From positions 1 through 39,708 of IMG/VR virus record IMGVR_UViG_3300005077_000072: a stretch of 39,708 nt of DNA. The stretch is one strand, 5' to 3'. Position numbers and translations under genes: made by a program. This document shows, piece by piece, positions 4,648 through 39,708 of this stretch; the stretch's first letter is position 1; every line of letters starts with the position of its first letter. The DNA comes from a virus. Its lineage: Duplodnaviria > Caudoviricetes. Below the pieces are notes generated by a model, which was not told where the DNA came from, ran no database searches, and saw nothing but the letters and a program-made list of their open reading frames with translations.

Positions 4648-4902
4648 CTCCGGTTTGCACCCGATCTGCCGCCCCTGTCCGTCGAGGCGGGGCGTAATTC
4701 CGCCGCCCGGCACGCGCAGGTATTGGCAGCCGGTAAGCGCATCCGTCATCGGCTCCATGCCGCTGCGTCCGCCTCCCCATGCTCTCATGTCAGTGTCGTC
4801 GCGCCCAACCGGCGTTTTGCCGATGGCCCATACAAGCACAATCGCAATCACAAGCCACTTGCCTGTCCAGCGCGTCCAGTCTTTCAGCGTTTCAAGTTCC
4901 AT
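4597..4902 (-). CDS. membrane-anchored hypothetical protein (DUF6440-like)
   Basis: TM segment; RSGM…TDALTGCQYL…GGITPRLD.GR; AAGGAG RBS. Confidence 0.7.
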   Translation of the reverse strand: MELETLKDWTRWTGKWLVIAIVLVWAIGKTPVGRDDTDMRAWGGGRSGMEPMTDALTGCQYLRVPGGGITPRLDGQGRQIGCKPEAQRRSERPGGGLIAGW

Positions 4903-4928
4903 TGTTCTCTCCTTCAAAAGTCGGCGTC

Positions 4929-4948
4929 GGTTAGCCGGGGCGTTAGTC
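4929..4948 (+). mobile_element. attC right-half remnant
   Basis: GGTTAGCC-ggggc-GTTAGTC; R' contains the antisense stop of ORF 4943-5173. Confidence 0.4.
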
Positions 4949-6372: not shown

Positions 6373-6909
6373 TTATATATTTAACAATAACATAATATCT
6401 GTGGCATCATAGGTGATCTGGCCTGTACTCAGTTCAAAAATATAATCGGTCTTAGGCTGAACCGCAACCCCTTTTTCTGATTCATGTACGTCAGAGTATG
6501 AGTACCCATAGCGGCGCAGAAACACAATGTTACCACCAAGGTCTCTAATCAACTGTGCTTCATTATCAAAACGAATGTCATCTACAATCAAAATTGTATC
6601 ATGATTACGGATATTTCTAACCTCAGCAGCAAATATATCAGTCCACAGAGAGTCTTTTACCGTTTTTCTCCCCCATTCGGTGCCGATTGTCTGCAACAGT
6701 CGCCTGTATGTTATTCCCGGCAGAAACTCCGTAGTTTTGAACAGCGCGTCGCATAATTGTTGCTCTGTACAGCCAGTAAGTCCAGACACCATCCGACGTA
6801 ATGGATCAGCATAGGATTTTACCAACACATTACTCTTGAACTGCGCTATCCTGCGAGCTATTGTTGTCTTGCCTACTCCAGCCGGGCCTGTCAAGCCTAC
6901 AATCTTCAT
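6373..6909 (-). CDS. deoxynucleoside monophosphate kinase (copy 1)
   Basis: GLTGPAGVGKTT, YADPLR, LLQTIGTEWGR, DDIRFDNEA, HESE; GGAG RBS before ATG 6909. Confidence 0.92.
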   Translation of the reverse strand: MKIVGLTGPAGVGKTTIARRIAQFKSNVLVKSYADPLRRMVSGLTGCTEQQLCDALFKTTEFLPGITYRRLLQTIGTEWGRKTVKDSLWTDIFAAEVRNIRNHDTILIVDDIRFDNEAQLIRDLGGNIVFLRRYGYSYSDVHESEKGVAVQPKTDYIFELSTGQITYDATDIMLLLNI

Positions 6910-7021
6910 GATGTGTAATCTCCAGGTGTGAATCTTTTTTGTGCTGGCGCAGTTGCCGTTCTTTTTGAAAATCTTTACCACAAATCTCACAAATATGATC
7001 GTGTTTATTGTGCCATGCCAT
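6830..7021 (-). CDS. small C2H2 zinc-finger protein
   Basis: CEICGKDFQKERQLRQHKKDSH = C-x2-C-x3-F-x5-L-x2-H-x4-H; fills the gap between ligase and kinase. Confidence 0.65.
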   Translation of the reverse strand: MAWHNKHDHICEICGKDFQKERQLRQHKKDSHLEITHHEDCRLDRPGWSRQDNNSSQDSAVQE

Positions 7022-7027
7022 AATGTC

Positions 7028-8338
7028 TTACCTGGTAAGGATGTCATTTAGAGTATCCGCGATATTACGGTCAAAGCGGAATTTGGAAAAACGTGGGTGT
7101 GATAGCGAGTATGTTGTTTTATCGCCGCTTTTAGACACCGATTCATATTTCACTTCAATTATTGTGCCTACATAGTCATTCCAATTAGCTTGCCGTTGTG
7201 CGTCGGTGAATCCACTGAGTGCAACTTTTAGCTGACCACACGCGGATTCTGCGTTTACCGAACCCATACATTTTTCATACTTAGTGTGCGGTTTTCCGTA
7301 GCCCCATCCTGTAACGACCAGCTCACACTCAGACTCATTTTTCAATTTTATCTGATCCTGTGATGTGCCGGATTTCCATTTACCATGACAGTTTTTTACT
7401 ACAAGCCCTTCTGAACCCTCAGATCGCACCTTATTATACAGATTATTTATGTCATCTATAGAATCGACTATAAAATTATCTATGGCAAACAGCTTTCCGT
7501 GGTTTAGCATGTTACGCAAAGTGCTGACCAGCCAGGCAAACCTGTCACAATACTTTGTTTCAGCTTTACCACAAAGAAAACTACTGTAAGCAACCAAGTC
7601 CCACGCTGTATAAAACATCATATCCAATTCATGTGGAGTAGCCGTGCCTTTTATGGCTTTATTCACAATACCATTGCTTATTGATCGTGGGAGCGGGTCT
7701 CCGTCATCACCGGATACCTGCAATTCACCGGACAGCACAAAAGAACCGCTAATATTCCTGATGCTGCTCGCCAGGCTGTCCAGCCCTAATATTGAACTTC
7801 CTTTTCTGGTAATAAAATTAACATTATTATCGTGTTTAATAATATAACAGAAAGCCCCGTCACACTTTAGCTGGGCATACGCAGGGAATTTAATATTAGG
7901 GAGCTTATCGCGGGTACTGCATCGCATATATGGGGTAACAAGCGCTATACCCGGATACGCCTTATTAGCGTTAGTGGCAGAAACTCCGCACCGCAAATCT
8001 TTATTACAGATTCGCCGCACTAATTCCAGCACCTCTACACTGTTACGTTTGGCAGACACAGCAAGTTCCAGTATTTGTATATCCGTGACGCCTCGTGAGT
8101 TAGCAAACTCATCCAGCTTATTCAAAATATAGGTATCTGTGTCCGCTCCTGTTGATTCAATATGTGATACATCAGGAAACGTGCTTACATGGAATGTCGT
8201 GTGATCGCTTAATGCTTGAAACATAACCCTTCTAAACAATGGTGATAACGCAGCGTACTCTCGCAATTTAGCTAATTTAGTGGTAGTGGCGTTAGCTTGT
8301 GCAATGTCCTCAATCCGGTGATACACGTCATACAACAT
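7028..8338 (-). CDS. ATP-dependent DNA ligase
   Basis: QLKCDGA (KxDG), SGEL, WD, EGLVVK, KLK, HPRF…RFD. Confidence 0.95.
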   Translation of the reverse strand: MLYDVYHRIEDIAQANATTTKLAKLREYAALSPLFRRVMFQALSDHTTFHVSTFPDVSHIESTGADTDTYILNKLDEFANSRGVTDIQILELAVSAKRNSVEVLELVRRICNKDLRCGVSATNANKAYPGIALVTPYMRCSTRDKLPNIKFPAYAQLKCDGAFCYIIKHDNNVNFITRKGSSILGLDSLASSIRNISGSFVLSGELQVSGDDGDPLPRSISNGIVNKAIKGTATPHELDMMFYTAWDLVAYSSFLCGKAETKYCDRFAWLVSTLRNMLNHGKLFAIDNFIVDSIDDINNLYNKVRSEGSEGLVVKNCHGKWKSGTSQDQIKLKNESECELVVTGWGYGKPHTKYEKCMGSVNAESACGQLKVALSGFTDAQRQANWNDYVGTIIEVKYESVSKSGDKTTYSLSHPRFSKFRFDRNIADTLNDILTR

Positions 8339-20421: not shown

Positions 20422-20920
20422 CAATCGCCCTCTTATGACCGTGTTGGTATCTATACCCCTCAGTGACCGCCGTAGGGACGGCAAACGGTAGTTTTTCCAA
20501 CTGCCGGAATATCGTAATCAGTGGCTTAGCTGTACGGCTTCTCCCGTCTACAGTTTCTACATACCGCCAATAATCGGTTGATCTGATAGACGGGGAGAAT
20601 TGCGGTGATTCATACGTTCTTTTCAATATCTGTGGGATAACGTGGACTAATTTAGATGGGTGCGTGATGTCTACTGCGCGAAGCCCAGAAAGGCTGTGTA
20701 ACAGCCTGAAGTATTGCGGAGATAACGGCACCAATAACCAAATTTTATCCGCATCCCCCACCATGCAATGGCCAGATACATAAATAGTGCCGGATGGGTG
20801 AAAGACCCTTACCCATTCTAATTGGCCGAACCCTGCGTAAGCTACCGGCTTTTCATAAGTGTCTGATAATCGCTTATATTGCGCCTTTGGCAGTTTAAGC
20901 GGCCTCGCCCTCAATGGCAT
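20354..20920 (-). CDS. hypothetical protein
   Basis: Fills the gap between HTH and primase, with short overlaps. Confidence 0.6.
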   Translation of the reverse strand: MPLRARPLKLPKAQYKRLSDTYEKPVAYAGFGQLEWVRVFHPSGTIYVSGHCMVGDADKIWLLVPLSPQYFRLLHSLSGLRAVDITHPSKLVHVIPQILKRTYESPQFSPSIRSTDYWRYVETVDGRSRTAKPLITIFRQLEKLPFAVPTAVTEGYRYQHGHKRAIDEGNIHDCIEVGPTNKGAETAS

Positions 20921-21125
20921 GTTCCACACCTTTTTCAACCTCTGTTACGAAATCACCGGGCGTCACTGCGCCGTTTGTGGCTGTTGATATAGCCAATGCG
21001 CGGCCCAGACTTGGGCGAGCTTTGCCGGATTCATACTTAGAAATCATACCAATTGAAACTCCAACTTTTTCCGCCAACTCAGCCTGTGTAATGCCTGTCT
21101 GTTTCCGATACTGTGCTATATTCAA
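20895..21125 (-). CDS. Cro/XRE-family HTH regulator
   Basis: TQAELAEKVGVSIGMISKYESGKARPS…ATNGAVT. Confidence 0.92.
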   Translation of the reverse strand: MNIAQYRKQTGITQAELAEKVGVSIGMISKYESGKARPSLGRALAISTATNGAVTPGDFVTEVEKGVEHAIEGEAA

Positions 21126-23075: not shown

Positions 23076-24485
23076 CTATTTTCCATTAGAAACCGGCACC
23101 TGTGCAAACCACTTCTGAATCAAGTTCGTTGTTTGGTAGCCCTTTCCATAGGGAGTCAGTTCTGAAGTGTGGTACGATGAAGGGCCAAATTTTTTGTCTA
23201 CTGCATCTATGTACATGGAGTACAACCCTTCCTCCACATGGTACATCCAGTCTGGAATATCCTGGGATGCAAGTTTTTGTTTGTATTGTGCTGCAAGAGA
23301 AGTATCAATACAAAAATGTGTAGCCCCTGTATCTAACGCAATATCAATCCAATCTTTATCTTCCTTTGTCCGTGTAAGGTGCGTCAAGTCACCTGCACGC
23401 CCAATCTGCTTGTACCCTAATAGCAATAGCCGTGCATGATTTTCCTTACTGTACCTAAATATACCGCGCAGTTCCCAAACTTTGAGCAACTCCGGGATGA
23501 TGTGAAACACAATCTTACTACGCAGATTAGGGTTTTTGTCAAAATGCTCTAGGACATTCTGCATTTCTGCCTCGGAGGTTACCGATATTCCAATACCTGA
23601 GACTGTGCTTTCGAGTATCCGCAGTTTTCGTGGATCGAGTGCCCAAGCTGGCGTGTTTTGAGAATGCCACCCTCTGGTTGTGAAACTGATATTCAGTTTC
23701 AAATATGCCGCCTGTTCTAAGATATGGAAAAAGTCTGGGTGTTCGGTTGGTTCTCCCCCGCCGATTGCCACTTCAAATACCCCTCCCTCAGCTAAACTGT
23801 GAATAATGTAGGAAACATCATAAGTGTTAGCATGTACCCCCGAAGGTGTGCTGTCCTGATAGCAGAACTTGCATCCATGTGTGCAAAAATTTGTTATTTT
23901 CAGGTCCACTAGCATTGGAGTCTTTGGTTTGAACTCGTCAGGATTTGAGAGAAAAGAGAACGTCACCCTATCTCCAGTGGTCGTCATAAGCGTCCACCAA
24001 TCCCCGTCTTTTCGACAGTATGAGTAAGGGGTATCAGGCATAAATTCTAAAGTTGCCGGGGTGTATTCTCCTTGAATATCTATCGGTAGGTTTTCATTAT
24101 CATTCCCACCTAATATGACAAGATTTTCTTGCAGTACATATTTTTTGAAATCTTCAAAAAACTCCAGGCTTGTTGCCGTAGTTCTCTGCTCCAAAGGGAA
24201 TGTATATGCTGATTGATGATCTACTGTCTGGTCTATAGCTGGAAGTTTCAGCCCTTTCAGAATCGAGCGCATAATCTTTGCAGGTAATTCTGGACGAAAA
24301 TGGGAGTTGAGCAAAGCCGCCAAATATGCTCGTTTCGCCTTTTCAGATGTAAGTACAAAATCATCCCAATGAAACCCTTGGCCTTGGGCGTAGTTGCTCT
24401 CCTGCTGTGGCTTAGAAACAAATATCATGGAATGCGATGAAGATGAGTTTGTAGCAAACCCAAGCCTGACATTTTGCACTTTCAT
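23076..24485 (-). CDS. radical SAM protein with N-terminal TNSSSSHS domain
   Basis: CTHGCKFC, IGGGEP, FTT; N-terminal R.GF.TNSSSSHS. Confidence 0.9.
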   Translation of the reverse strand: MKVQNVRLGFATNSSSSHSMIFVSKPQQESNYAQGQGFHWDDFVLTSEKAKRAYLAALLNSHFRPELPAKIMRSILKGLKLPAIDQTVDHQSAYTFPLEQRTTATSLEFFEDFKKYVLQENLVILGGNDNENLPIDIQGEYTPATLEFMPDTPYSYCRKDGDWWTLMTTTGDRVTFSFLSNPDEFKPKTPMLVDLKITNFCTHGCKFCYQDSTPSGVHANTYDVSYIIHSLAEGGVFEVAIGGGEPTEHPDFFHILEQAAYLKLNISFTTRGWHSQNTPAWALDPRKLRILESTVSGIGISVTSEAEMQNVLEHFDKNPNLRSKIVFHIIPELLKVWELRGIFRYSKENHARLLLLGYKQIGRAGDLTHLTRTKEDKDWIDIALDTGATHFCIDTSLAAQYKQKLASQDIPDWMYHVEEGLYSMYIDAVDKKFGPSSYHTSELTPYGKGYQTTNLIQKWFAQVPVSNGK

Positions 24486-25233: not shown

Positions 25234-25797
25234 TTAACTATTGCGCCAATTTCGGTCCCACGATTTTATGCCTGTCATCTGCATAAAATTGATAGCATCA
25301 GAAAGAATCTGGTCAGGGGTCAGTTCGTATATTCCATCAACTGCGGGCTGAAACGTAACCCCTTTTTCTGATTCATGGGTACCTGAGTAAGAGAACCAAC
25401 AGCGACGTAGAAACACAATGCTACCACCAAGGTCACGGATCAATTGCGCCTCATTGTCAAATCGGACATCGTCTACAATAATGCTACAACCATGGCACGT
25501 ACCGATTTCCTTAGCAAATATATCTGTCCATAGGGAATTTTTTATTGTTTTTCTCCCCCATTCTGTGCCCAATGTTTGGAGCAGTTGCCTGTATGTGATA
25601 CCGGGCATAAACTCAGTAGTTTTGAATTGTGCATCACGTAATTGTTGTTCTGTACAACCTGTGAGTGTGGCTACCATTCGACGTAGCGGATCGGCATAAG
25701 ACTTTACAACTACATTAGTGCCATACTGAGTAGCTATTTTGTATGCTAACGTTGTCTTGCCTACCCCTGCCGGGCCTGTCAATCCTATAAGTTTCAA
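25234..25797 (-). CDS. deoxynucleoside monophosphate kinase (copy 2)
   Basis: GLTGPAGVGKTT, YADPLR, QTLGTEWGR, DDVRFDNEA, HESE; TTG start with AGGAGG. Confidence 0.92.
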   Translation of the reverse strand: MKLIGLTGPAGVGKTTLAYKIATQYGTNVVVKSYADPLRRMVATLTGCTEQQLRDAQFKTTEFMPGITYRQLLQTLGTEWGRKTIKNSLWTDIFAKEIGTCHGCSIIVDDVRFDNEAQLIRDLGGSIVFLRRCWFSYSGTHESEKGVTFQPAVDGIYELTPDQILSDAINFMQMTGIKSWDRNWRNS

Positions 25798-31757: not shown

Positions 31758-32333
31758 TTACTTTTTACCTAACAGCTTTTTTATCTGTTGAGACGCCGCG
31801 AGAGCAATGTCGCTGACCGGGATGTCAGAACATGGCTGGCCCAAATTTTTCGGGATACTGGCTTCAATTTCTGGGAATATTTCTACCAATTGATTGACTG
31901 TAGCCACTGAATCTATGATCCGTTTGGTAACCCTTCTGATCTGATCCCTCTTTGGGAAATATTCTCGGTAAATTTTATACCATGGTGCAGCAAGATCGTT
32001 CAGTGTCGCCAAGTCCAACCCCAAATCTAGGTAAGACAAAGACACTCTAGTCATTCTACGTGTTTGTTTGTTGCTAAAATAAATAGTCTGAGATGGGATT
32101 CGCGCAGAAGTTGGCAAGCGAACTAAAGAAATATACTGAGATGTGTTAATCAAGTGGAGTGGTAGTTTATCCATAAATGCTCTGATTTCTGCTGGGTAGG
32201 CTATTTCGTAAATCTTCTCAGCGAAAGCCCCTTGCGCTTCACTTTCTTCGGCTGCCAAAGGCCCAAGAACATCTGCCAGGTATTGACTCAGGATTCGGCT
32301 TCTCTTCTCGTGGTTAAGTCTGATAATCGCCAT
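31758..32333 (-). CDS. possible Nmad5-family (nucleotide-modification-associated) protein
   Basis: N-terminal IRLN…R..I and C-terminal IIDSVATVNQLVEIFPE…IP; AAGGAG RBS. Confidence 0.55.
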   Translation of the reverse strand: MAIIRLNHEKRSRILSQYLADVLGPLAAEESEAQGAFAEKIYEIAYPAEIRAFMDKLPLHLINTSQYISLVRLPTSARIPSQTIYFSNKQTRRMTRVSLSYLDLGLDLATLNDLAAPWYKIYREYFPKRDQIRRVTKRIIDSVATVNQLVEIFPEIEASIPKNLGQPCSDIPVSDIALAASQQIKKLLGKK

Positions 32334-32385
32334 TTGTTTTCTCCTTATTCTACCCATAAGATGCTGACATAACAGTAATTTTGTG

Positions 32386-32711
32386 TTATTTAATGCTTTG
32401 CCTCCTAGGTACATCATCACGAAAATCACAGAACCAATCGACAGCATCGGGGAAAGCCACACATATTGCCGCACACATATCCGCTGCCACCCCTTGCCAG
32501 TTCTGGCGGGTGAGGTGGTACAGCATTTGCGCCATCAGGCGCTTATCCGCTATAATGTTTGTGCCTTTGCAGCTGAGGGGTATGCCAGAAGAAAAATCGA
32601 GGTTGGCTTCGCGCAAATCCGCACCGCGCAAATTCGCCAGTGCCCCTGACTATTTTCTGTTTCCAGCCACAGCAAATGATCCGCCAGAACATCGTACAAG
32701 AGCCTTTTCAT
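32386..32711 (-). pseudogene. pentapeptide-repeat protein, frameshifted in a G4 run
   Basis: MKRLLYDVLADHLLWLETENSQG then -1 frame ALANLRGADLREANLDFSSGIPLSCKG. Confidence 0.65.
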
Positions 32712-32723
32712 TTTGTACCCCAT

Positions 32724-33002
32724 TCATGTTAGCGATTGCTGCTCCACCGTATGAAAATCGTCATAATCGTCATCGTCCTGATGAATCCAATCATAAACAG
32801 CATTGTGGACATCCAGCATAAAATCATCCTTTAGAATATCCTGAATGTCAACAACACTACCAGGCATACTCACTGCCACAATCTCAATCTCTTCAGGATA
32901 TCCCTGATCCCACCGTGTATCCGGCATCTCCGGCGTATACACATATTTCACAACCACATCAAACCCCTGCACGTCTACTGTTATTTCTATTGTTGTCCCC
33001 AT
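32724..33002 (-). CDS. acidic hypothetical protein
   Basis: VVVKYVYTPE…GYPEEIEIVAV. Confidence 0.65.
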   Translation of the reverse strand: MGTTIEITVDVQGFDVVVKYVYTPEMPDTRWDQGYPEEIEIVAVSMPGSVVDIQDILKDDFMLDVHNAVYDWIHQDDDDYDDFHTVEQQSLT

Positions 33003-33007
33003 TGTTA

Positions 33008-33199
33008 CTAAAGGCAAAACCGTTCCAAATGATGCTCCGGGTACATCACTACGCACCGCAACGGCCCATGTTGAGATTTTGTAATCTCAAACCACTTCAC
33101 GCCATTGCTGGCAGTGTATGTGTACTTCACGCTGACACAATCACCAGCGCGAAACTCCGCGCAACTAATTTTCGCAAACGCTGTCTTGTAATTCTTCAT
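33008..33199 (-). CDS. 63-aa protein, paralog of 35398-35589
   Basis: TAFAKISCAEFRAGDCV shared. Confidence 0.8.
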   Translation of the reverse strand: MKNYKTAFAKISCAEFRAGDCVSVKYTYTASNGVKWFEITKSQHGPLRCVVMYPEHHLERFCL

Positions 33200-33236
33200 G
33201 ATTACACTCCTTTTCCTGGAAATCCAGGAATCTCGG

Positions 33237-33728
33237 CTATAGTGTCGCCACAAAATTCCGCAATGCCCTCACATACTGGTCATCTTCCGGCAGCAGCATC
33301 GGCGCTACCACACAAACATCCTCGTTGTATATGAAATTATTAGCAAAGAACAACTTATCAGGCATGTACAGTGAGGCGGTTATGGCTTCCCAGTATCCAA
33401 CATCTATCCCAACCAGCTTATCCTCCATACGGAGCAATCTGACATTATACCGCCCATCGCTCCACATCAAATTTATATCTATAAGCTCAGTCTTATCCGT
33501 AGATTCCGCAATACGTCGGTAAATCCCTTGTAAATCCGGCATCATTGTACCATCATGTATCGTTTTATTTTTGTATACAAATGGTGTTTTTGAGTAAAAT
33601 GCCGGATGTATTTGTTTAGGGATTGTTAGCTGACAGGCGTCTACACGTATGATTGTGTGCCCATTTGATATGTAGGTGCCGTCAAAGTAAATGTCATCCG
33701 CATTGGTTAGTTTCATTTTCATCGTCAA
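33237..33728 (-). CDS. hypothetical protein, paralog of 35622-36113
   Basis: KLT..D.IYFD…SNG…PDLQ.IY…APM shared. Confidence 0.8.
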   Translation of the reverse strand: MTMKMKLTNADDIYFDGTYISNGHTIIRVDACQLTIPKQIHPAFYSKTPFVYKNKTIHDGTMMPDLQGIYRRIAESTDKTELIDINLMWSDGRYNVRLLRMEDKLVGIDVGYWEAITASLYMPDKLFFANNFIYNEDVCVVAPMLLPEDDQYVRALRNFVATL

Positions 33729-33760
33729 CTCCTTAGTTTACTAACAACCAGGTCTCTTAC

Positions 33761-33787
33761 GGGCAGCGCGGGGACCCCGCGCTGCCC
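33761..33787. repeat. perfect GC-rich palindrome (13-1-13)
   Basis: GGGCAGCGCGGGG-A-CCCCGCGCTGCCC; intergenic. Confidence 0.85.
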
Positions 33788-33796
33788 CACATTTTG

Positions 33797-34855
33797 CTAT
33801 CCAGCATATTCACGAGAAAAGGTGAATACGCCATACGGCACAGAGACATGCAGAAACACTCGCTCAACCCGTGCCAGCCTATCCTCATCCACTGTCGTAT
33901 CCGCCAGATACCCAACGCGCCCTTTAGGCGCTACGGTAGCGCCGGGGGTGAGCTTTTCAATACCCTCCATAATCTGAAAAGTCCCCTCAGTCACACTATC
34001 CATCGGGCCGGTAATGTATTTTACTTCCCCCTCATAATACTCATCAATAAAACCTTTTTCCGTGTACGACTCGATCACCTCCTCATCAGTGATATCTTCA
34101 TACCGCTGATAACCATCCAACGGAGCGAACACCTTCTCAGCCATATGCTGTTTTACCTCCTCAACATCCAGCAGCCCCCTTGCATGTCGGCGCTGGGCCG
34201 TCTCCGACATCGTGGCAACCTCGGCATCAATCTGCTCTCGCTCTGCCACCCTCTTAGCCATCTCCGCAGCTTTCTTAGCCTCCTCAGCAACCTTTTTCGC
34301 CGCCAGTTTTTCCTCATGCTCCGTCCGTTTCTGCGGCAGCAGCGCCCTCATGCGGATAATTTTCGATGCGGCCCCCTGGTGCGCCAAAACCGCATCCCTA
34401 ATGTCATTACTAACCGTTCCCAGGCCGTCATAAAAAACCACTTTCTCGTTATCCTGGATACTAAAAAAGTCATCCTCATCGCGGTCAAGAATGCGCCTGG
34501 CTAGCATCTCGACAATACCCGCCTGTGCGGCTGCCTTCTCCGCCGCCATTTCCGCCACAAACGCATCCCGCGCCGCTGGCCATGCGGCGATAATAGTGCG
34601 AATGCTCTCCAGTGAGCTATCCGCGATGCGGGGAACAGCGATGCCGTACCTGCCGCCCTCACTCGTTATCCACAGAGACGGAGAAATTTCGCCGTTGCTG
34701 TTACAACACATTTGCGAGAGGGCCACACGCTCTCCTTCAGACAATTGTGCAACCTCATCACTAGACAGCTCCCGCGCCACCTGGCCGTACTGCGTGCGCC
34801 CCGCCCTGATAGCGAGTTCCCGATTGATTTCAATGGCGATGCGTACCTTTTCCAT
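33797..34855 (-). CDS. hypothetical protein with central coiled coil
   Basis: 352 aa; AAAGGAG RBS. Confidence 0.8.
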   Translation of the reverse strand: MEKVRIAIEINRELAIRAGRTQYGQVARELSSDEVAQLSEGERVALSQMCCNSNGEISPSLWITSEGGRYGIAVPRIADSSLESIRTIIAAWPAARDAFVAEMAAEKAAAQAGIVEMLARRILDRDEDDFFSIQDNEKVVFYDGLGTVSNDIRDAVLAHQGAASKIIRMRALLPQKRTEHEEKLAAKKVAEEAKKAAEMAKRVAEREQIDAEVATMSETAQRRHARGLLDVEEVKQHMAEKVFAPLDGYQRYEDITDEEVIESYTEKGFIDEYYEGEVKYITGPMDSVTEGTFQIMEGIEKLTPGATVAPKGRVGYLADTTVDEDRLARVERVFLHVSVPYGVFTFSREYAG

Positions 34856-34928
34856 GATGCTCTCCTTTGGGGTCTCGCCCCATTATCCCCAGGTCATGCC
34901 TGGGTATTTTCCTGACAAACGGATGTTG

Positions 34929-35189
34929 TCAGGATGCCTGCATAGTTAGAAACGCCGCAAACCCCGCTTCAGTCAACCCGCACCCGGCGTCATGGGCGCG
35001 GCCGCTACTCCACACCAGCCCGGCGTTAAGCAGGCTGGTAAACACACCTTTATCTTCAGGGGTTTCAATTATTGTATCCCGCCAAGTTTCCGTTTCTTTT
35101 GCCGTCCTTGGAGTATCCCCGTTTACTGGGGTGTATTCGCTTGTAGCAATTTTTCTTATCATCAGCATCTGCAAATCCGTCATCGTCAT
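34929..35189 (-). CDS. possible winged-helix protein
   Basis: GVFTSLLNAGLVW…LTEAG; GGAGG RBS. Confidence 0.65.
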   Translation of the reverse strand: MTMTDLQMLMIRKIATSEYTPVNGDTPRTAKETETWRDTIIETPEDKGVFTSLLNAGLVWSSGRAHDAGCGLTEAGFAAFLTMQAS

Positions 35190-35397
35190 ATCCTCCGTTT
35201 TGTTTTTATGCGCCGGGCCTTTTCGCAGCCTGCCCCCAGCTCCGCATTAAGCAGAAATGAAAAGACGTTACATAACAATCATTTCACCTTTTTATAGCGC
35301 TTTTTCATACCTGGGTGATTATCGACGAGCCAGGCAACATCTTCCTCATCCATAGCTTATTGTTGTGGCATGGCCGCCTTGGCGGCATCATCGTATT

Positions 35398-35589
35398 TCA
35401 ACATTTTAGCCTCTCCAAGTGATGCTCAGAATACATAATTGTACGGCGTAATGGGCCGTATTGTGATGCTGTTACTTCATACCACTTCACGCCATTGCTG
35501 GCAGTGTGAGAGTATTTCACAATAACACAGTCACCAGCGCGAAACTCCGCGCAACTAATTTTCGCAAACGCTGTTCGGTATTTTTTCAT
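35398..35589 (-). CDS. 63-aa protein, paralog of 33008-33199
   Basis: 44-bp DNA identity 35531-35574 vs 33141-33184. Confidence 0.8.
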   Translation of the reverse strand: MKKYRTAFAKISCAEFRAGDCVIVKYSHTASNGVKWYEVTASQYGPLRRTIMYSEHHLERLKC

Positions 35590-35621
35590 TGCCAGGCTCC
35601 TTTTCCTGGATTTACAGGATT

Positions 35622-36113
35622 TTATTTTGTGGATTCCGTATGTGCCACAGCAGCGATCAGCATATTAAGATACTCATTATCTGTACCCAGCCTCATCGGC
35701 GCGATTATGCCGATGTCTTCAATGTATAAGAAGTTATCGGCAAAATACGCATTATGCTTGTGGGGTTCCATAAATGCCCAGTATCTCGTCGCGATTCCTA
35801 TGATTCCGCCGTTTGTACAAAACAGTTTGGCGTCATCACCGAACATCAGGCCGGTGTCAGTTATAGGATACTTATCTGCACTCTTCGCCGTGTTGTTGTA
35901 AATAGCCTGCAGGTCGGGAGCAACATCGTCTAGTGGGCTGTGATTTTTATAACTGAATGGTTTCTTTGCATAAAATGCCGCCCGCATTTCCTCAGTCGGG
36001 AATGTCCATTGGTACGCTGATGCCCGTGCCATAAAGTATCCGTTTGACACAAAATTTGTGTCAAAGTAAATGTTGTCGTTCTTCGTCAGTTTGATTGTCG
36101 CTGTCTTGCTCAT
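35622..36113 (-). CDS. hypothetical protein, paralog of 33237-33728
   Basis: AAAAGGAG RBS before ATG 36113 (alternative TTG start at 36167). Confidence 0.8.
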   Translation of the reverse strand: MSKTATIKLTKNDNIYFDTNFVSNGYFMARASAYQWTFPTEEMRAAFYAKKPFSYKNHSPLDDVAPDLQAIYNNTAKSADKYPITDTGLMFGDDAKLFCTNGGIIGIATRYWAFMEPHKHNAYFADNFLYIEDIGIIAPMRLGTDNEYLNMLIAAVAHTESTK

Positions 36114-36358
36114 TGTCGTTCTCCTTTTCATTGGCTTTTTGTCAACATCTACTTTGTGGATTTTCAAAAACCTCCTATTGTTATTTTACCTGTGTACCCC
36201 ATTGCATGGGCAATGGCTTCCATGGCGTCATTCTTGGTCTCCTTCTTGTTGGTGTGAGTGGCAAAATCCTGGAAATCTGTATGTTTTAGGGTGCAGGGTG
36301 CGGGGCATCCGACATGTCCTTGTTATGTTTCATGCTTTGGCGCTCTGTTTGAATTGCC

Positions 36359-37033
36359 CGATTTAGGGCATTTTTAAAATGGGGTAACGGATGAATATTG
36401 TTCAGCTTTATGGCCGCTCAGGGCATTAGGGCAATTGCTATCTGCTGTTAGGGCATTTTTAAAAATGGGATAATGGCAAGATATTGTTAGGATATTTTTT
36501 TTCTAAAAAAGTGACTGCCCTAGGGGTGTTTGCGAGATTTGCTGCGTAACTGTCTGAGATTATTTCTGTAATCAAAAACGAGGATTGTTTTTTTTATTAC
36601 TTTGATTAACAATCCATAGCTTGAAGGGGTCCCGTGGCATGGGGTTAGAAAAAAAAAAAAATTAGAATGGTTGTTAAAAAAGGCCTTTTTTAGGCGTTTG
36701 AATTTTTGCGGATTTGATAATGATCCCGCATAGAATTTTAAAAAATGTCGAAGAAGTGCGGCTTCGCAGCAGGCCCATATTTCAGCGGAACATCAAAAAC
36801 ATACGGCACAGAAGAAAATTTTCTAAAAAAACCCTGAAAATAAAAGTGGAATTATATCAGCAAATTACGTCAGGGCAAAAAAATTTAAAAATGCCCTGAA
36901 AAATGCCCTAAATCGCTAAAAACGACGCTATATCAATAGGCTACAGACAAAAGGCAAAAAACTTAAAAATGCCCTGAAAATGCCTTGAGGAGTACCACAG
37001 AGTATCTCAAAAGTGTCTCAAAAGTGTCTCAAA
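36359..37033. repeat. AT-rich non-coding region with oppositely oriented AGGGCATTTTT/AAAAATGCCCT motifs
   Basis: 17-bp perfect inverted repeat 36359-36375/36899-36915; A13 tract; palindrome 36675-36692; 11-bp tandem repeat 37005-37033. Confidence 0.75.
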
Positions 37034-37265
37034 CGCCTCAAGCCGTCATTTCGCGTCAATAGTCAGCTTTTTGACACTACCACATTGTACCGCGCTCGCC
37101 CCTGTCAAACTATTGACACCCCCAATTTTTGCCATTTTTCAGGCACAGTTTATGCAAGGTTCGCGTAAATATGTCTGACAATTTCCAGTCTGACCGACAA
37201 CGGAAACCGCCAGTATAACGACGACGCCATCGCGATCTGCATTGCGAGCTTCATTTTCGTTCCTC

Positions 37266-37454
37266 CTAGTACCCACACTGAGCACATACAATGTGCAGTT
37301 TCCCGCCATTCTGGATAGTGACGCTGTTACCCAACTCAGCACCGAACGTAACATGGTGCCCACAGTCGAGACGGAACTTTCGCCCATCAAGCTGTTGTAT
37401 GTAAGCCCGTAGTTCGTCGGCGGGCGCATACTGCATTTTCTGCTTTTTCGTCAT
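37266..37454 (-). CDS. small Zn-ribbon protein
   Basis: LDCGHH…VCAQCGY; GGAGG RBS. Confidence 0.75.
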   Translation of the reverse strand: MTKKQKMQYAPADELRAYIQQLDGRKFRLDCGHHVTFGAELGNSVTIQNGGKLHIVCAQCGY

Positions 37455-37742
37455 TTACAGTCCTCCAGGAAAAATCCGGTATTTACCGGATTTTTCCTGC
37501 ATGAACGCTTGGCAGGCTTTGATAATTAGCTCCGTCCTCACACCATAACAAAATGGCATGAAGGGGCCTCACCTGCCAAGCGTTCAAAAATCCGGTAAAA
37601 TACCGGATTTTAAAAACTTCACAGAAGGGCCGTCTGACGCATTTTCCAGACCCTACCAATGGTATTGTATGGTCAGTGTCGAAAATGCGTTAGACGGCCT
37701 ATTAGGGGGCTTGTAGGTGGCAGTGTTGATAACTGCCCGAAT

Positions 37743-37832
37743 TTATTGATAGGCTGCCCACAGTACGATGAACAGCGCATAGAACAGGACAATCGCCGTT
37801 ATTATGGCGATAACTTCCCTAAATAACGACAT
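37743..37832 (-). CDS. possible 29-aa single-TM peptide
   Basis: MSLFREVIAIITAIVLFYALFIVLWAAYQ*; no clear RBS. Confidence 0.35.
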   Translation of the reverse strand: MSLFREVIAIITAIVLFYALFIVLWAAYQ

Positions 37833-38046
37833 AGCCGTCAGCTATATCGTTGTTCAGGGCGACAAGGCGGTCTTCCTTGCCACGAAGACGCAGTGCCCGC
37901 TTTGCGCGGGCACTGCGCTCCAAGTGGCGGACTGCCGCGGCAAAGCGGCAGTCCGACATTGCCTGCTTGTACAGTAGGCGCTCCGCCGTCATCCGCCGGC
38001 GGATAGTGTCTTCAGTTTCCGGCATGATTACGATTCGCTTTGCCAT
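37819..38046 (-). CDS. basic hypothetical protein
   Basis: AAGGAGG RBS directly after palindrome A. Confidence 0.7.
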   Translation of the reverse strand: MAKRIVIMPETEDTIRRRMTAERLLYKQAMSDCRFAAAVRHLERSARAKRALRLRGKEDRLVALNNDIADGYVVI

Positions 38047-38174
38047 TGTCATTCCTCCTTGTGATTTTCCGGTAAAATACCGGATTTTCCCTGTCACAAT
38101 GACAGGCAAAAGCGTATTAATCCGCATTAATACGCTTTTGCCCGGCATTGACGCTGGGTGAGTGTTGGGCAGTT

Positions 38175-38393
38175 TTACGGCTTGCCCAGCAGTTCTGGGG
38201 GTACTGCAAGGGGTATCTCAGTGAATTTGTCACATAGGCACGACAGTGAATGCGGCAGCACGCCGCATACGTGCTTCCCCGCTACGGCGTCTGCCGTAGC
38301 GTGGGCGACCACTTCGGTCTGGCTGGAAGCCAGACCGATTTTTCGCAGATACTCAACTAGGCCGGGGTGTCTAGTCACGATAAGGTCAATCAT
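38175..38393 (-). CDS. Csx16 (VVA1548)-like protein, probably C-terminally truncated
   Basis: IVTRHPGLVEYL…VAHAT…V.GVLP…L.VPPELLGK; AGGAGG RBS. Confidence 0.7.
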   Translation of the reverse strand: MIDLIVTRHPGLVEYLRKIGLASSQTEVVAHATADAVAGKHVCGVLPHSLSCLCDKFTEIPLAVPPELLGKP

Positions 38394-38453
38394 TGTCCTT
38401 TCCTCCTGCTAATTTTCCGGTATTTTACCGGATTTTTCCCTGCATAACGCAGG

Positions 38454-38690
38454 TCAAATGGCGCTGTTAACGATCTCGGAAATGAGACCGTCCAGCAGGT
38501 ATACGTATTCCAGCCCCGCTGAATCATAGGAACGCGCCTGCCGAATGGCGCGTTCCGTGGCATTGAACCGCCCACGAATTGGCCATTTTTGGCTTTCATC
38601 AATCGCGCGGAACGCGCGATTGATGATTGTCCGCGATGCCCTGGCTGTCTTTGCAGATTCTGCCAGGTTGGCAATTTGTTCTGGCGTCAT
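38454..38690 (-). CDS. hypothetical protein
   Basis: MTPEQIANL…; GGGAGG RBS; stop abuts hairpin 38439-38453. Confidence 0.75.
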   Translation of the reverse strand: MTPEQIANLAESAKTARASRTIINRAFRAIDESQKWPIRGRFNATERAIRQARSYDSAGLEYVYLLDGLISEIVNSAI

Positions 38691-38746
38691 CTTTGGTCCT
38701 CCCATCTTCCCGGATTCAGCCGGGTCCGTCTCTGAAAATCCGGTAT

Positions 38747-39099
38747 TTACCGGATTTTTCCTGTCACAATGACAGGCAAAAGCGTATTAATCCGCATTAA
38801 TACGCTTTTGCCCGGCATTGACGCTGGGTGAGTGTTGGGCAGTTTTACGGCTTGCTCCCCAACTGGAAAATTACCAGAAGGGATCACGAAATACCGCTTT
38901 CCGTGATGGATTGCGGCATATATACCCCACCCACAATGCACCGGGTTACCGGGCATTGCCTTCATCGCACGCTTCACAAAAGTCCGTGCGGATGGATGGT
39001 TTGTCCGCGCGGCCTTAATGGCGCGGTCTGCGGTCAGAAGGTTACAAAAACAGGGCATTGTGGTATGCCCCGAAAGAACGTATGAACAATATTTTTCAT
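38747..39099 (-). pseudogene. probable frameshifted small gene running into a repeat module
   Basis: Strong RBS then MKNIVHTFFRGIPQCPVFVTF* (21 aa); an overlapping frame continues …LLTADRAIKAAR…KRYFVIP into the 96-bp repeat. Confidence 0.4.
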
Positions 39100-39244
39100 T
39101 TTCCTTCCTCCCATCTTCCCGGATTCAGCCGGGTCTGTTTTCAAAAATCCGGTAAAATACCGGATTTTTCCTGTCACAGTGGCAGGAAAAAGCGTATTAA
39201 TGCGGATTAATACGCTTTTGCCCAGCATCAAGCCTGGCAAGCGT

Positions 39245-39613
39245 TCAAAAATCCGGCTCCTTCATAAGCTCCGCCCGCGAAGGCAGAGTGGGACGCTCTG
39301 CCTTCGGCTCGCACGTCTCCCAGACGTGCGAGAATCTTTTTTCGCGCTTTCGCGCGACGAAGCGTCCGCCATATGAGGCGACTTGCAATCGCCTCATATT
39401 GTTAAACCAGTTGTCCGTAATATCACCGACGGGCAGTTCTGCCCGCAAGGTATCCAGGACGGCTATAGCAGCTGTCCTGTTCTCTTCCGCACCAACAATG
39501 CGGAAGAAATCGGCGGACGTAGAATAACCAGCGGCAAAGGCTGTGTATGCAGCTTTGCCGGTTTCAATGGTGATGCTGGTGATGCTGGCGATGTTGTTCT
39601 TTTTCATCTTCAT
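39245..39613 (-). CDS. hypothetical protein
   Basis: 122 aa; AGGAGG RBS; last codons are supplied by a repeat half-site. Confidence 0.75.
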   Translation of the reverse strand: MKMKKNNIASITSITIETGKAAYTAFAAGYSTSADFFRIVGAEENRTAAIAVLDTLRAELPVGDITDNWFNNMRRLQVASYGGRFVARKREKRFSHVWETCEPKAERPTLPSRAELMKEPDF

Positions 39614-39708
39614 TGTCCTTTCCTCCTGCTAATTTTCCGGTAAAATACCGGATTTTCCCAGCTCAAAATAAAGCTGGGGTAAACCTATAAATTTTATAGG
39701 TTTACCCC

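Follow-up and report, generated by a model that had tools for sequence, protein, structure and literature searches.

The window analysed here is the whole of IMG/VR record IMGVR_UViG_3300005077_000072 (G000), a 39,708-bp tailed-phage fragment classed as linear; CheckV puts its completeness at about 25%. The fragment encodes a family A polymerase, a primase-helicase, a SNF2 helicase, SbcCD-like proteins, a ligase, ThyX, a methyltransferase and a lysis gene; the nearest cultured homologues of the polymerase are 28% identical, with a gene layout that proved uninformative, and uncultured ones reach 51%. Genes read leftward from the right end, and therefore positions 37,451–39,708 hold the most upstream genes on the contig. 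In this segment, small minus-strand genes lie behind copies of a short palindrome (palindrome A), and inverted repeats fill coding and intergenic DNA alike, forming what is referred to below as the hairpin-saturated island. An earlier reading of the same DNA (the sequence-only reading) had described modules of stacked hairpins A, C and B, one before each gene, and proposed them as recombination sites that swap early genes, hairpin promoters or RNase III sites; the saturation of coding DNA, which a few relatives share, was absent from it.

All 15 of the 150-nucleotide (nt) windows between 37,451 and 39,700 fold below their dinucleotide shuffles, with z at or below -1.8 on the minus strand and -2.2 on the plus strand, compared to a mean z of -0.5 for 52 background windows of the same length, six of which fall below -3. 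Stems cover 34% of the 2.26-kb island, coding sequence included, and 2.7% of the remainder of the contig (12.4 versus 1.07 stems per kb), and the mean folding residual is -4.7 versus -0.9 for the next best stretch. When a single finder was applied to all sequences, the island held 12.8 stems per kb, and the islands of the relatives G003, L329 and L353, described below, held 12.1, 18.3 and 15.3. Comparators scored 6.7 (MS2), 5.6 (the injection stop signal, iss, of T5), 4.6 (T5 first-step DNA) and 3.6 (the leading region of F), with the SPO1 terminal module (3.2) and the rest of the contig (2.0) at the low end. Island stem density is about twice that of MS2, a single-stranded RNA phage, and stem coverage amounts to 30–43% in the four island genomes. 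A search of Rfam returned 14 matches, all far under gathering scores.

The structure extends into the choice of synonymous codons. When codons were permuted synonymously (100 permutations per gene), four island genes scored z = -7.0, -5.5, -3.3 and -3.2, below all permutations, and nine other genes of the contig scored -2.1 to +0.6. Seven of eight genes in the G003, L329 and L353 islands gave -4.8 to -9.3 (the eighth, 0.0), and the terS genes adjoining the three relatives' islands gave -1.6 to +1.1. The 78-residue (aa) gene is a member of a widespread phage family of 138 proteins at E ≤ 0.001, query included. Fifteen homologues of it from other contigs have a mean z of -0.6 and a minimum of -2.6, indicating that structure has been imposed on the gene at this position. 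Most of the 146 family loci are not dense in hairpins (83 were profiled; all were scanned, with at most seven hairpins per 1.5 kb). Repeated intergenic hairpins occur at one such locus (L034, 5700–7300) and a palindrome cluster at another (L001, 4170–4690). An ESM Atlas search with the 78-aa protein gave no usable match.

Palindrome A (TCCGGTA-N2/3-TACCGGA) was found seven times in the window by pattern search, all within 37,475–39,652, and in none of 2000 shuffles of the region, in agreement with the sequence-only reading. That reading was also right that six minus-strand genes or gene remnants are preceded by a copy: four copies lie 20–22 nt upstream of the start and two lie about 50 nt upstream, across a further hairpin (E). 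It had seen no sigma70 pair in the modules, and indeed none of the eight sigma70-like sites in 33,000–39,708 (9.0 expected) falls at a module. The pattern has no loci in IMG/VR and no match in 27 relatives. Arms are mostly 7–12 bp, extended in four copies and not in three; the spacer is 3 nt in five copies and 2 nt in two, and its sequence (AAA, TTT or AA) is flipped between copies. The copies at 38416 and 39636 have near-identical flanks and reverse-complementary spacers, and hairpin B likewise has a copy with an inverted spacer.

The modules themselves are less regular than had been described. Hairpins B (at 38105, 38775 and 39188) and C (canonical at 38090 and 38760, variant at 39170 and 38439) are present, but the A-C-B block accompanies only three of the seven A copies, and two of these are one 108-bp duplication with 99% identity. 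In its extended form, hairpin B has 25-bp arms (-33 kcal/mol) and lies between genes in three copies. The last module had been taken to keep the A-C-B geometry with different sequences, as a conserved structure. Hairpins, however, fill the whole 2.26 kb and not the modules alone, so stacked hairpins after the last A copy are expected anywhere in this segment and give no evidence of module geometry. A 103-aa open frame passes through B and C and stops within A, and B and C may therefore have originated as coding hairpins before duplication. Hairpin C (CCTGTCA-CAA-TGACAGG) resembles the repeated palindromes of the early regions of G003 (TGTCAYAAWTTRTGACA) and G005 (TGTCCAWWTGGACA), with different spacing. 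Two degenerate A-like palindromes that the sequence-only reading did not report, at 33214 and 35604, lie outside the island. A two-gene block is duplicated at 33008–33728 and 35398–36113, with 163-aa paralogues 39% identical, and its short gene has a degenerate A palindrome before the ribosome-binding site (RBS) in both copies.

Features of the island and associated elements in the window (A, palindrome A; B, C and E, further hairpins; z, synonymous-permutation score)
Position	Strand	Feature	Remarks
20895..21125	-	Cro-like helix-turn-helix (HTH) gene, 76 aa	Pfam HTH_3, E 1.5e-15; upstream of primase
33214..33229		Degenerate A-like palindrome	Directly before RBS of paralogous gene
35604..35619		Degenerate A-like palindrome	Directly before RBS
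36350..37050		AT-rich block bounding island	Inverted AAAAATGCCCT-type repeats and 12-bp tandem repeats
37266..37454	-	62-aa gene, just beyond saturated zone	56% homologue in G006; z -1.0
37451..39708		Hairpin-saturated island, coding and intergenic	Continues past contig end
37475..37490		A copy	Spacer 2 nt; arms up to 16 bp long; start at 37454 lies 20 nt away
37591..37607		A copy	No gene after; with 37475 copy flanks long hairpin
37743..37832	-	29-aa hydrophobic open reading frame (ORF)	Overlaps preceding stop; lacks an A copy ahead of it
37819..38052	-	77-aa gene with coding hairpins; no family	z -3.2
38068..38084		A copy	Before 77-aa gene
38078..38185		108-bp block, copy 1	C 38090–38106, B 38105–38142; truncates Csx16-like gene
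38175..38393	-	Csx16/Cas_VVA1548-like gene	Pfam PF09652, E 3.7e-10, profile 2–71 of 91; z -3.3
38416..38432		A copy	Before Csx16-like gene
38454..38690	-	78-aa gene, widespread phage family	z -5.5
38739..38754		A copy	Spacer 2 nt; hairpin E (38709–38724) lies between it and the 78-aa gene
38747..39099	-	21-aa ORF with RBS (39034–39099) overlapping 103-aa open frame (38747–39058)	
38748..38855		108-bp block, copy 2	99% identical; C 38760–38776, B 38775–38812
39148..39164		A copy	Before 21-aa ORF/remnant via hairpin E 39118–39133
39170..39219		Third C (variant) and B	Other two B copies have the opposite spacer orientation
39233..39256	-	Half-copy of A and flank common to 37591 copy	Includes 122-aa ORF stop codon
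39245..39613	-	122-aa ORF, no family, coding hairpins	z -7.0
39636..39652		A copy	Before 122-aa gene
39657..39708		7-8-7 hairpin (39657–39678) and 16-1-16 palindrome (39676–39708)	Contig terminates here

The gene at 38175..38393 is a truncated Csx16-like gene, predicted from its profile match to belong to a cyclic tetra-adenylate (cA4) ring nuclease family. Its frame ends inside the 108-bp repeat, about 20 aa short of a full-length Cas_VVA1548 domain. Csx16 is described in PMC12409355 as a cA4 ring nuclease present in 2 of 28,114 phage genomes, and a member of this family in the array is a hint that the array holds anti-defence genes. A genome search with PF09652 returned no match, as did its positive controls. 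The region of the 21-aa ORF and the 103-aa frame is possibly a gene remnant, and this frame had no match among cultured phages. At the other border of the island, the AT-rich block carries a sigma70-like promoter (10/12 matches, minus strand) at 36851–36878. Seven AAAAATGCCC/TAGGGCA-type repeats lie within 36350–37050 in two opposed groups, an origin-like or end-boundary-like arrangement, and one copy of the motif is present at 65,998 in G006.

To place the island in a genomic context, relatives were collected through a polymerase alignment (75 loci, with 13 records examined in full) and a terL alignment (92 loci, of which 29 were profiled: all 24 with at least 4 kb upstream and five shorter ones). 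A cultured-phage nucleotide search gave three 35-bp chance matches; no relatives came from locus searches that used the polymerase or the Csx16-like protein as single sequences, or from the polymerase alignment against GTDB genomes. The closest complete relative, G003 (83,396 bp; polymerase 44% identical), has a single island at 65.3–68.5 kb, with a mean residual of -3.3 versus -1.2 for the next best stretch. Relative to the replication genes it is placed upstream, as in the window, and it is flanked by an AT-rich repeat block and a divergent terS-portal-terL cluster, in which terL, like the capsid gene, was named by search, and terS and portal were assigned from their size and location. Neither a gene nor hairpin A is common to this island and the window. 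More generally, islands beside terS in relatives hold genes unrelated to those of the window. Among the 13 polymerase relatives, G003 is clear, G013 moderate (-2.6) and the other 11 reach -0.9 to -1.8; the 29 terL loci divide into three strong (G003, L329 and L353), three moderate and 23 weak ones. No dense island was present in 18 additional stretches taken from eight records (at most five hairpins per kb).

Contig breaks point to the same part of the genome. Among the 21 terL contigs that are 25 kb or longer, 13 break off no more than 10 kb upstream of terL, and one does so no more than 10 kb downstream of it. A long palindrome begins at the very first position of record G028, and one likewise closes the window; no end overlap was found in G028 or G029. 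Stops at palindromes are compatible with a physical end and with an assembly break alike. The last palindrome of the window therefore need not be the genome end, and the stop at 39,708 is probably an assembly break. Short tandem repeats lie between terS and the first early gene in G003 (L231, 8472–8556), G013 (L253, about 4890–4935) and G006 (L244, about 7200–7700) and are candidate packaging or end sites. The TerL proteins of L329 (9887–12790) and L353 (9587–12496) are about 350 aa longer than that of G003, with an insertion that looks intein-like; Hom_end domains are listed for homologues of similar length.

The three island genes of L329 are also those of L353, in unchanged order, at 61% nucleotide identity (56% and 65% for the two proteins aligned). 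Most coding hairpins of one are missing in the other, where hairpins in a different register take their place; compensatory pairs were counted at 14 and 12, versus 13.7 expected by chance. With registers rebuilt and covariation at chance level, what is kept is the saturation and not a particular fold. Within IMG/VR, only these two records carry the L329/L353 island genes (three proteins below E 1e-7). The folding energy difference between sense and antisense strands is -0.5 ± 0.5 over 11 islands and +1.0 ± 1.1 in the window, with controls at -3.1 ± 1.1 (MS2), -2.0 ± 0.6 (rRNA) and +0.7 ± 0.7 (genome). The antisense-to-sense ratio of confident pairs is 1.08 in islands versus 0.88 in RNA controls, and G·U pairs make up 80 of 1347 (5.9%) in islands versus 122 of 1228 (9.9%) in RNA controls and 8–13% in shuffles. 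A count of G·T versus A·C by strand was dropped because the positive controls MS2 and rRNA also gave about 0.5, leaving the test without power. Spacers of 3–5 nt (n = 30) outnumber those of 0–2 nt (n = 11), a peak that speaks for real fold-back rather than bare dyad symmetry. Polymerase template switching yields homogenized arms and inverted spacers, as described in PMC8604942; the flipped spacers of A and B, and the A copies with and without extended arms, match such products. Taken together, strand symmetry, loss of register and spacer flips favour a cause at the DNA level over one at the level of mRNA.

The repeated palindrome preceding the genes appears to be a separate layer. An unbiased search found a repeated palindrome in four of the 13 relatives (G001, 5 sites; G003, 12; G005, 22; G006, 7), different in each genome, 14–17 bp long and in many cases 10–40 nt before an early start codon; in G003, sites also lie as far as 8 kb beyond the island. 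A 76-aa Cro-like HTH protein that the sequence-only reading had not mentioned is encoded in the window upstream of the primase, and diverged HTH genes occupy the syntenic position upstream of the primase in G003, G001 and G006. This protein is a candidate binder of palindrome A. This combination of a genome-specific dyad with a Cro-like protein that has diverged matches a repressor regulon, in which a repeated dyad of 14–18 bp would lie near early starts (seven plus two sites here) and an HTH protein would be encoded. Palindrome A is accordingly given a somewhat better than even chance of being the operator through which the Cro-like repressor shuts off early genes. A parallel is the repressor control of plasmid establishment and anti-CRISPR genes reported in PMC8708921. 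Several observations fit this assignment poorly. Nine of the 13 relatives lack such a motif, half-site spacing is not fixed (3 nt in five and 2 nt in two copies of A, with the five G001 sites split four to one), no palindrome lies directly before the HTH gene, and the HTH match in G005 is weak and located elsewhere. Furthermore, the palindromes can fold as RNA (-3 to -16 kcal/mol), and the main alternative is an RBS-proximal RNA hairpin or attenuator.

Based on these data, the explanation tentatively preferred, at somewhat less than even odds, is that the 2.3-kb early-gene block is saturated with inverted repeats because it is a genome-end segment that repeatedly becomes single-stranded, with palindrome A as an operator of the Cro-like repressor. 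In lambda-type packaging, the last-packaged end, upstream of terS, enters first. By the synteny with G003 and the contig breaks, the island would be a terminal, first-entering or terminally repeated segment adjoining the packaging genes. The segment could become single-stranded when its end is resected after entry or copied by strand displacement. Through fold-back and template switching, quasi-palindromes would then become perfect and spacers would be inverted, and strands able to snap back, formed from either strand, would persist for the protection they give the end. The duplicated blocks and the cut Csx16-like gene would be products of ordinary recombination between the repeats so formed. 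Island genes would be transcribed from promoters beyond the contig end and later repressed by the Cro-like protein.

Several results weigh against this explanation. The window has no packaging genes, and the genome-end position of the island depends on synteny and on the contig-end bias. G006 shares the layout without an island, which makes the trait patchy: one clear and one moderate case among 13 polymerase relatives, several of which are fragments, and three strong and three moderate cases among 29 terL loci, with G003 counted in both sets. Three of the four strong islands lean toward the sense strand (-1.7, -2.2 and -1.3), an earlier run of the energy comparison gave -4.3 ± 0.5 for L329, and GNRA/UNCG loops number four on the sense and none on the antisense strand. 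Moreover, the G·U test takes pairs as independent, which they are not, and its RNA controls are indistinct from shuffles.

The sense-strand leaning and the loop count speak instead for selection on mRNA, a less probable but substantial alternative in which the first transcripts are folded end to end against RNases or type III/VI CRISPR systems and palindrome A is a 5' stabilizer or attenuator hairpin before each RBS. Loops of 3–8 nt are foldable, generic shielding needs no conserved register, and the array includes a member of the Csx16 family, whose cA4 ring-nuclease activity is described in PMC12409355. Yet the pooled strand asymmetry is near zero and is positive in the window, antisense strands fold equally, stems are purer than in MS2 or rRNA, and spacer inversions are DNA events. 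An origin without any selection for structure, in which palindromes accumulate passively in a template-switching hot zone near an origin or packaging site with protein constraint as the filter, overlaps the preferred explanation on origin and differs solely on benefit. It is consistent with perfect arms, flipped spacers, patchy presence and the lack of a conserved register or excess covariation. It is distinctly unlikely, because an extreme local rate would be needed to give 30–43% stem coverage within limits so sharp that neither the terS genes nor the 62-aa gene is affected. An assembly or amplification artefact is scarcely credible: the contig ends at a palindrome and contains a 108-bp repeat with 99% identity, but island genes have open frames and real homologues, and the same feature occurs in independent records of different sequence. 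The one property that might be artefactual is how many copies of the 108-bp block there are.

The three options of the sequence-only reading are unlikely even in combination. Integron-like or RAYT-like site-specific cassette shuffling at the palindromes is the most improbable of them. One gene per repeat, duplicated blocks and a truncated gene are what it would produce, and in G003 a 510-aa protein with PHROG 'transposase' matches (L230, 11161–12690) is encoded directly downstream of the primase. Against it, palindrome A is unique to this contig, and L329 and L353, the only homologous pair and from a distant lineage, keep gene order. The sequence-only reading had noted the lack of a recombinase in the window, and this extends further: no tyrosine recombinase (PF00589), serine recombinase (PF00239) or Y1-HUH transposase (PF01797) was found in G000 and four records at least 90% complete, with positive controls detected. 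What stands of the proposal is rearrangement mediated by repeats; the duplications of 108, 59 and 50 bp and the cut gene need only ordinary recombination, as proposed for PeSL cassettes. Hairpin promoters like those of N4 or Frpo, in which a cruciform or the folded template strand would be read, are quite improbable. Such promoters have an oriented conserved loop, fold preferentially on the template strand or reconstitute a -35/-10 pair on it. Both strands of the modules are foldable, no sigma70 site is present at them, and three GNA triloops lie on the template (antisense) strand of the four islands and none on the sense strand, but the pooled islands show no template-strand preference, the AAA/TTT flips of the A spacer leave no oriented loop, and A lies only 20–22 nt from the start codon. 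A scan of 74 of the 108 G003 ORFs found no RNA polymerase, and neither did a Pfam search (PF00940), which was without a positive-control match. Phages T7 and SPO1 process early transcripts into single-gene mRNAs, and RNase III sites comprise about two helical turns of duplex between genes. The intergenic extended hairpin B would suit cutting by RNase III or a phage nuclease. As a general account this is very improbable, because most A copies are too short, B is present in three of seven modules (two of them a recent duplication) and hairpins inside codons are left unexplained.

In its boldest form, which is rather unlikely, the preferred explanation holds that a group of 80–90-kb double-stranded DNA tailed phages delivers or maintains a terminal segment of 1–3 kb as single-stranded DNA. 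Any gene residing there would have its codons reshaped into perfect hairpins set back to back, allowing both strands to snap back and thereby avoid nucleases that sense ends, induction of the SOS response or spacer acquisition. Such a segment would parallel the leading strand of plasmids and represent a type of genome end not described before. The assumption for tailed phages is that their DNA is double-stranded on entry and afterwards, and a coding block denser in folds than a single-stranded RNA phage is therefore unexpected, as is its recurrence beside terminase genes in lineages without common island genes, imposed on genes that are unstructured elsewhere. A single-stranded end would constitute a new end-protection or entry strategy, and mRNA shielding a sequence-level anti-defence trait. 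In either case, synonymous-shuffle folding next to terS provides a computational signature for genome ends and first-expressed candidate anti-defence genes in uncultured phages.

Elsewhere in the window, two deoxynucleoside monophosphate (dNMP) kinase genes are located at 6373–7047 and 25234–25797, and genes for a Radical SAM protein (23076–24485), an Nmad5 protein (31758–32474), an HNH endonuclease (1577–1930) and a transglutaminase-like C93 peptidase (1164–1592) were also identified.

No description of a hairpin-saturated phage coding region was found in the open-access literature (main texts, without supplements), but individual properties of the island are shared with known systems. The PeSL cassettes of T4-type phages are repeated stem-loops before small early ORFans, and recombination between the repeats alters gene content (PMC2839356 and PMC4122927). 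As described there, PeSLs are intergenic and contain consensus sigma70 promoters, whereas the modules of the window have no promoter and hairpins fill coding sequence. The ESAS/SAS elements of cluster K mycobacteriophages (PMC3203893) are variable-spacer inverted repeats just upstream of many RBSs, with a genome-specific consensus; by that account they have imperfect 17-bp arms and spacers of 4–13 bp, in contrast to the perfect arms of 6–8 bp inside a saturated island seen here. The palindrome-before-RBS layer is therefore of a known kind, resembling ESAS, PeSLs and operators.

The saturation of coding DNA sets the island apart. In plasmid leading regions, first-expressed, variable and likely anti-defence genes similarly follow repeated elements (Frpo, EGeRS1 inverted repeats and EGeRS2 operators; PMC8708921 and PMC13478746), but single-stranded DNA enters by conjugation, structure is described upstream of genes, and the F leading region has 3.6 stems per kb versus 12.8. 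The T5 first-step-transfer DNA with its injection stop signal and the SPO1 host-takeover module are terminal, first-entering sets of small early genes with a repeat-rich border, at 3.2–5.6 stems per kb, well under the islands, in figures that cover whole regions with coding sequence not separated. Quasi-palindrome template switching homogenizes arms and inverts spacers, also within genes; the events in the account of PMC8604942 are scattered, and that account describes no saturated block on the kilobase scale. Finally, MS2 resembles the island in that codons are chosen so that the coding sequence folds. MS2, however, has a sense-strand bias and more G·U pairs, whereas the islands are denser, purer and strand-symmetric, and reside in double-stranded DNA tailed phages.

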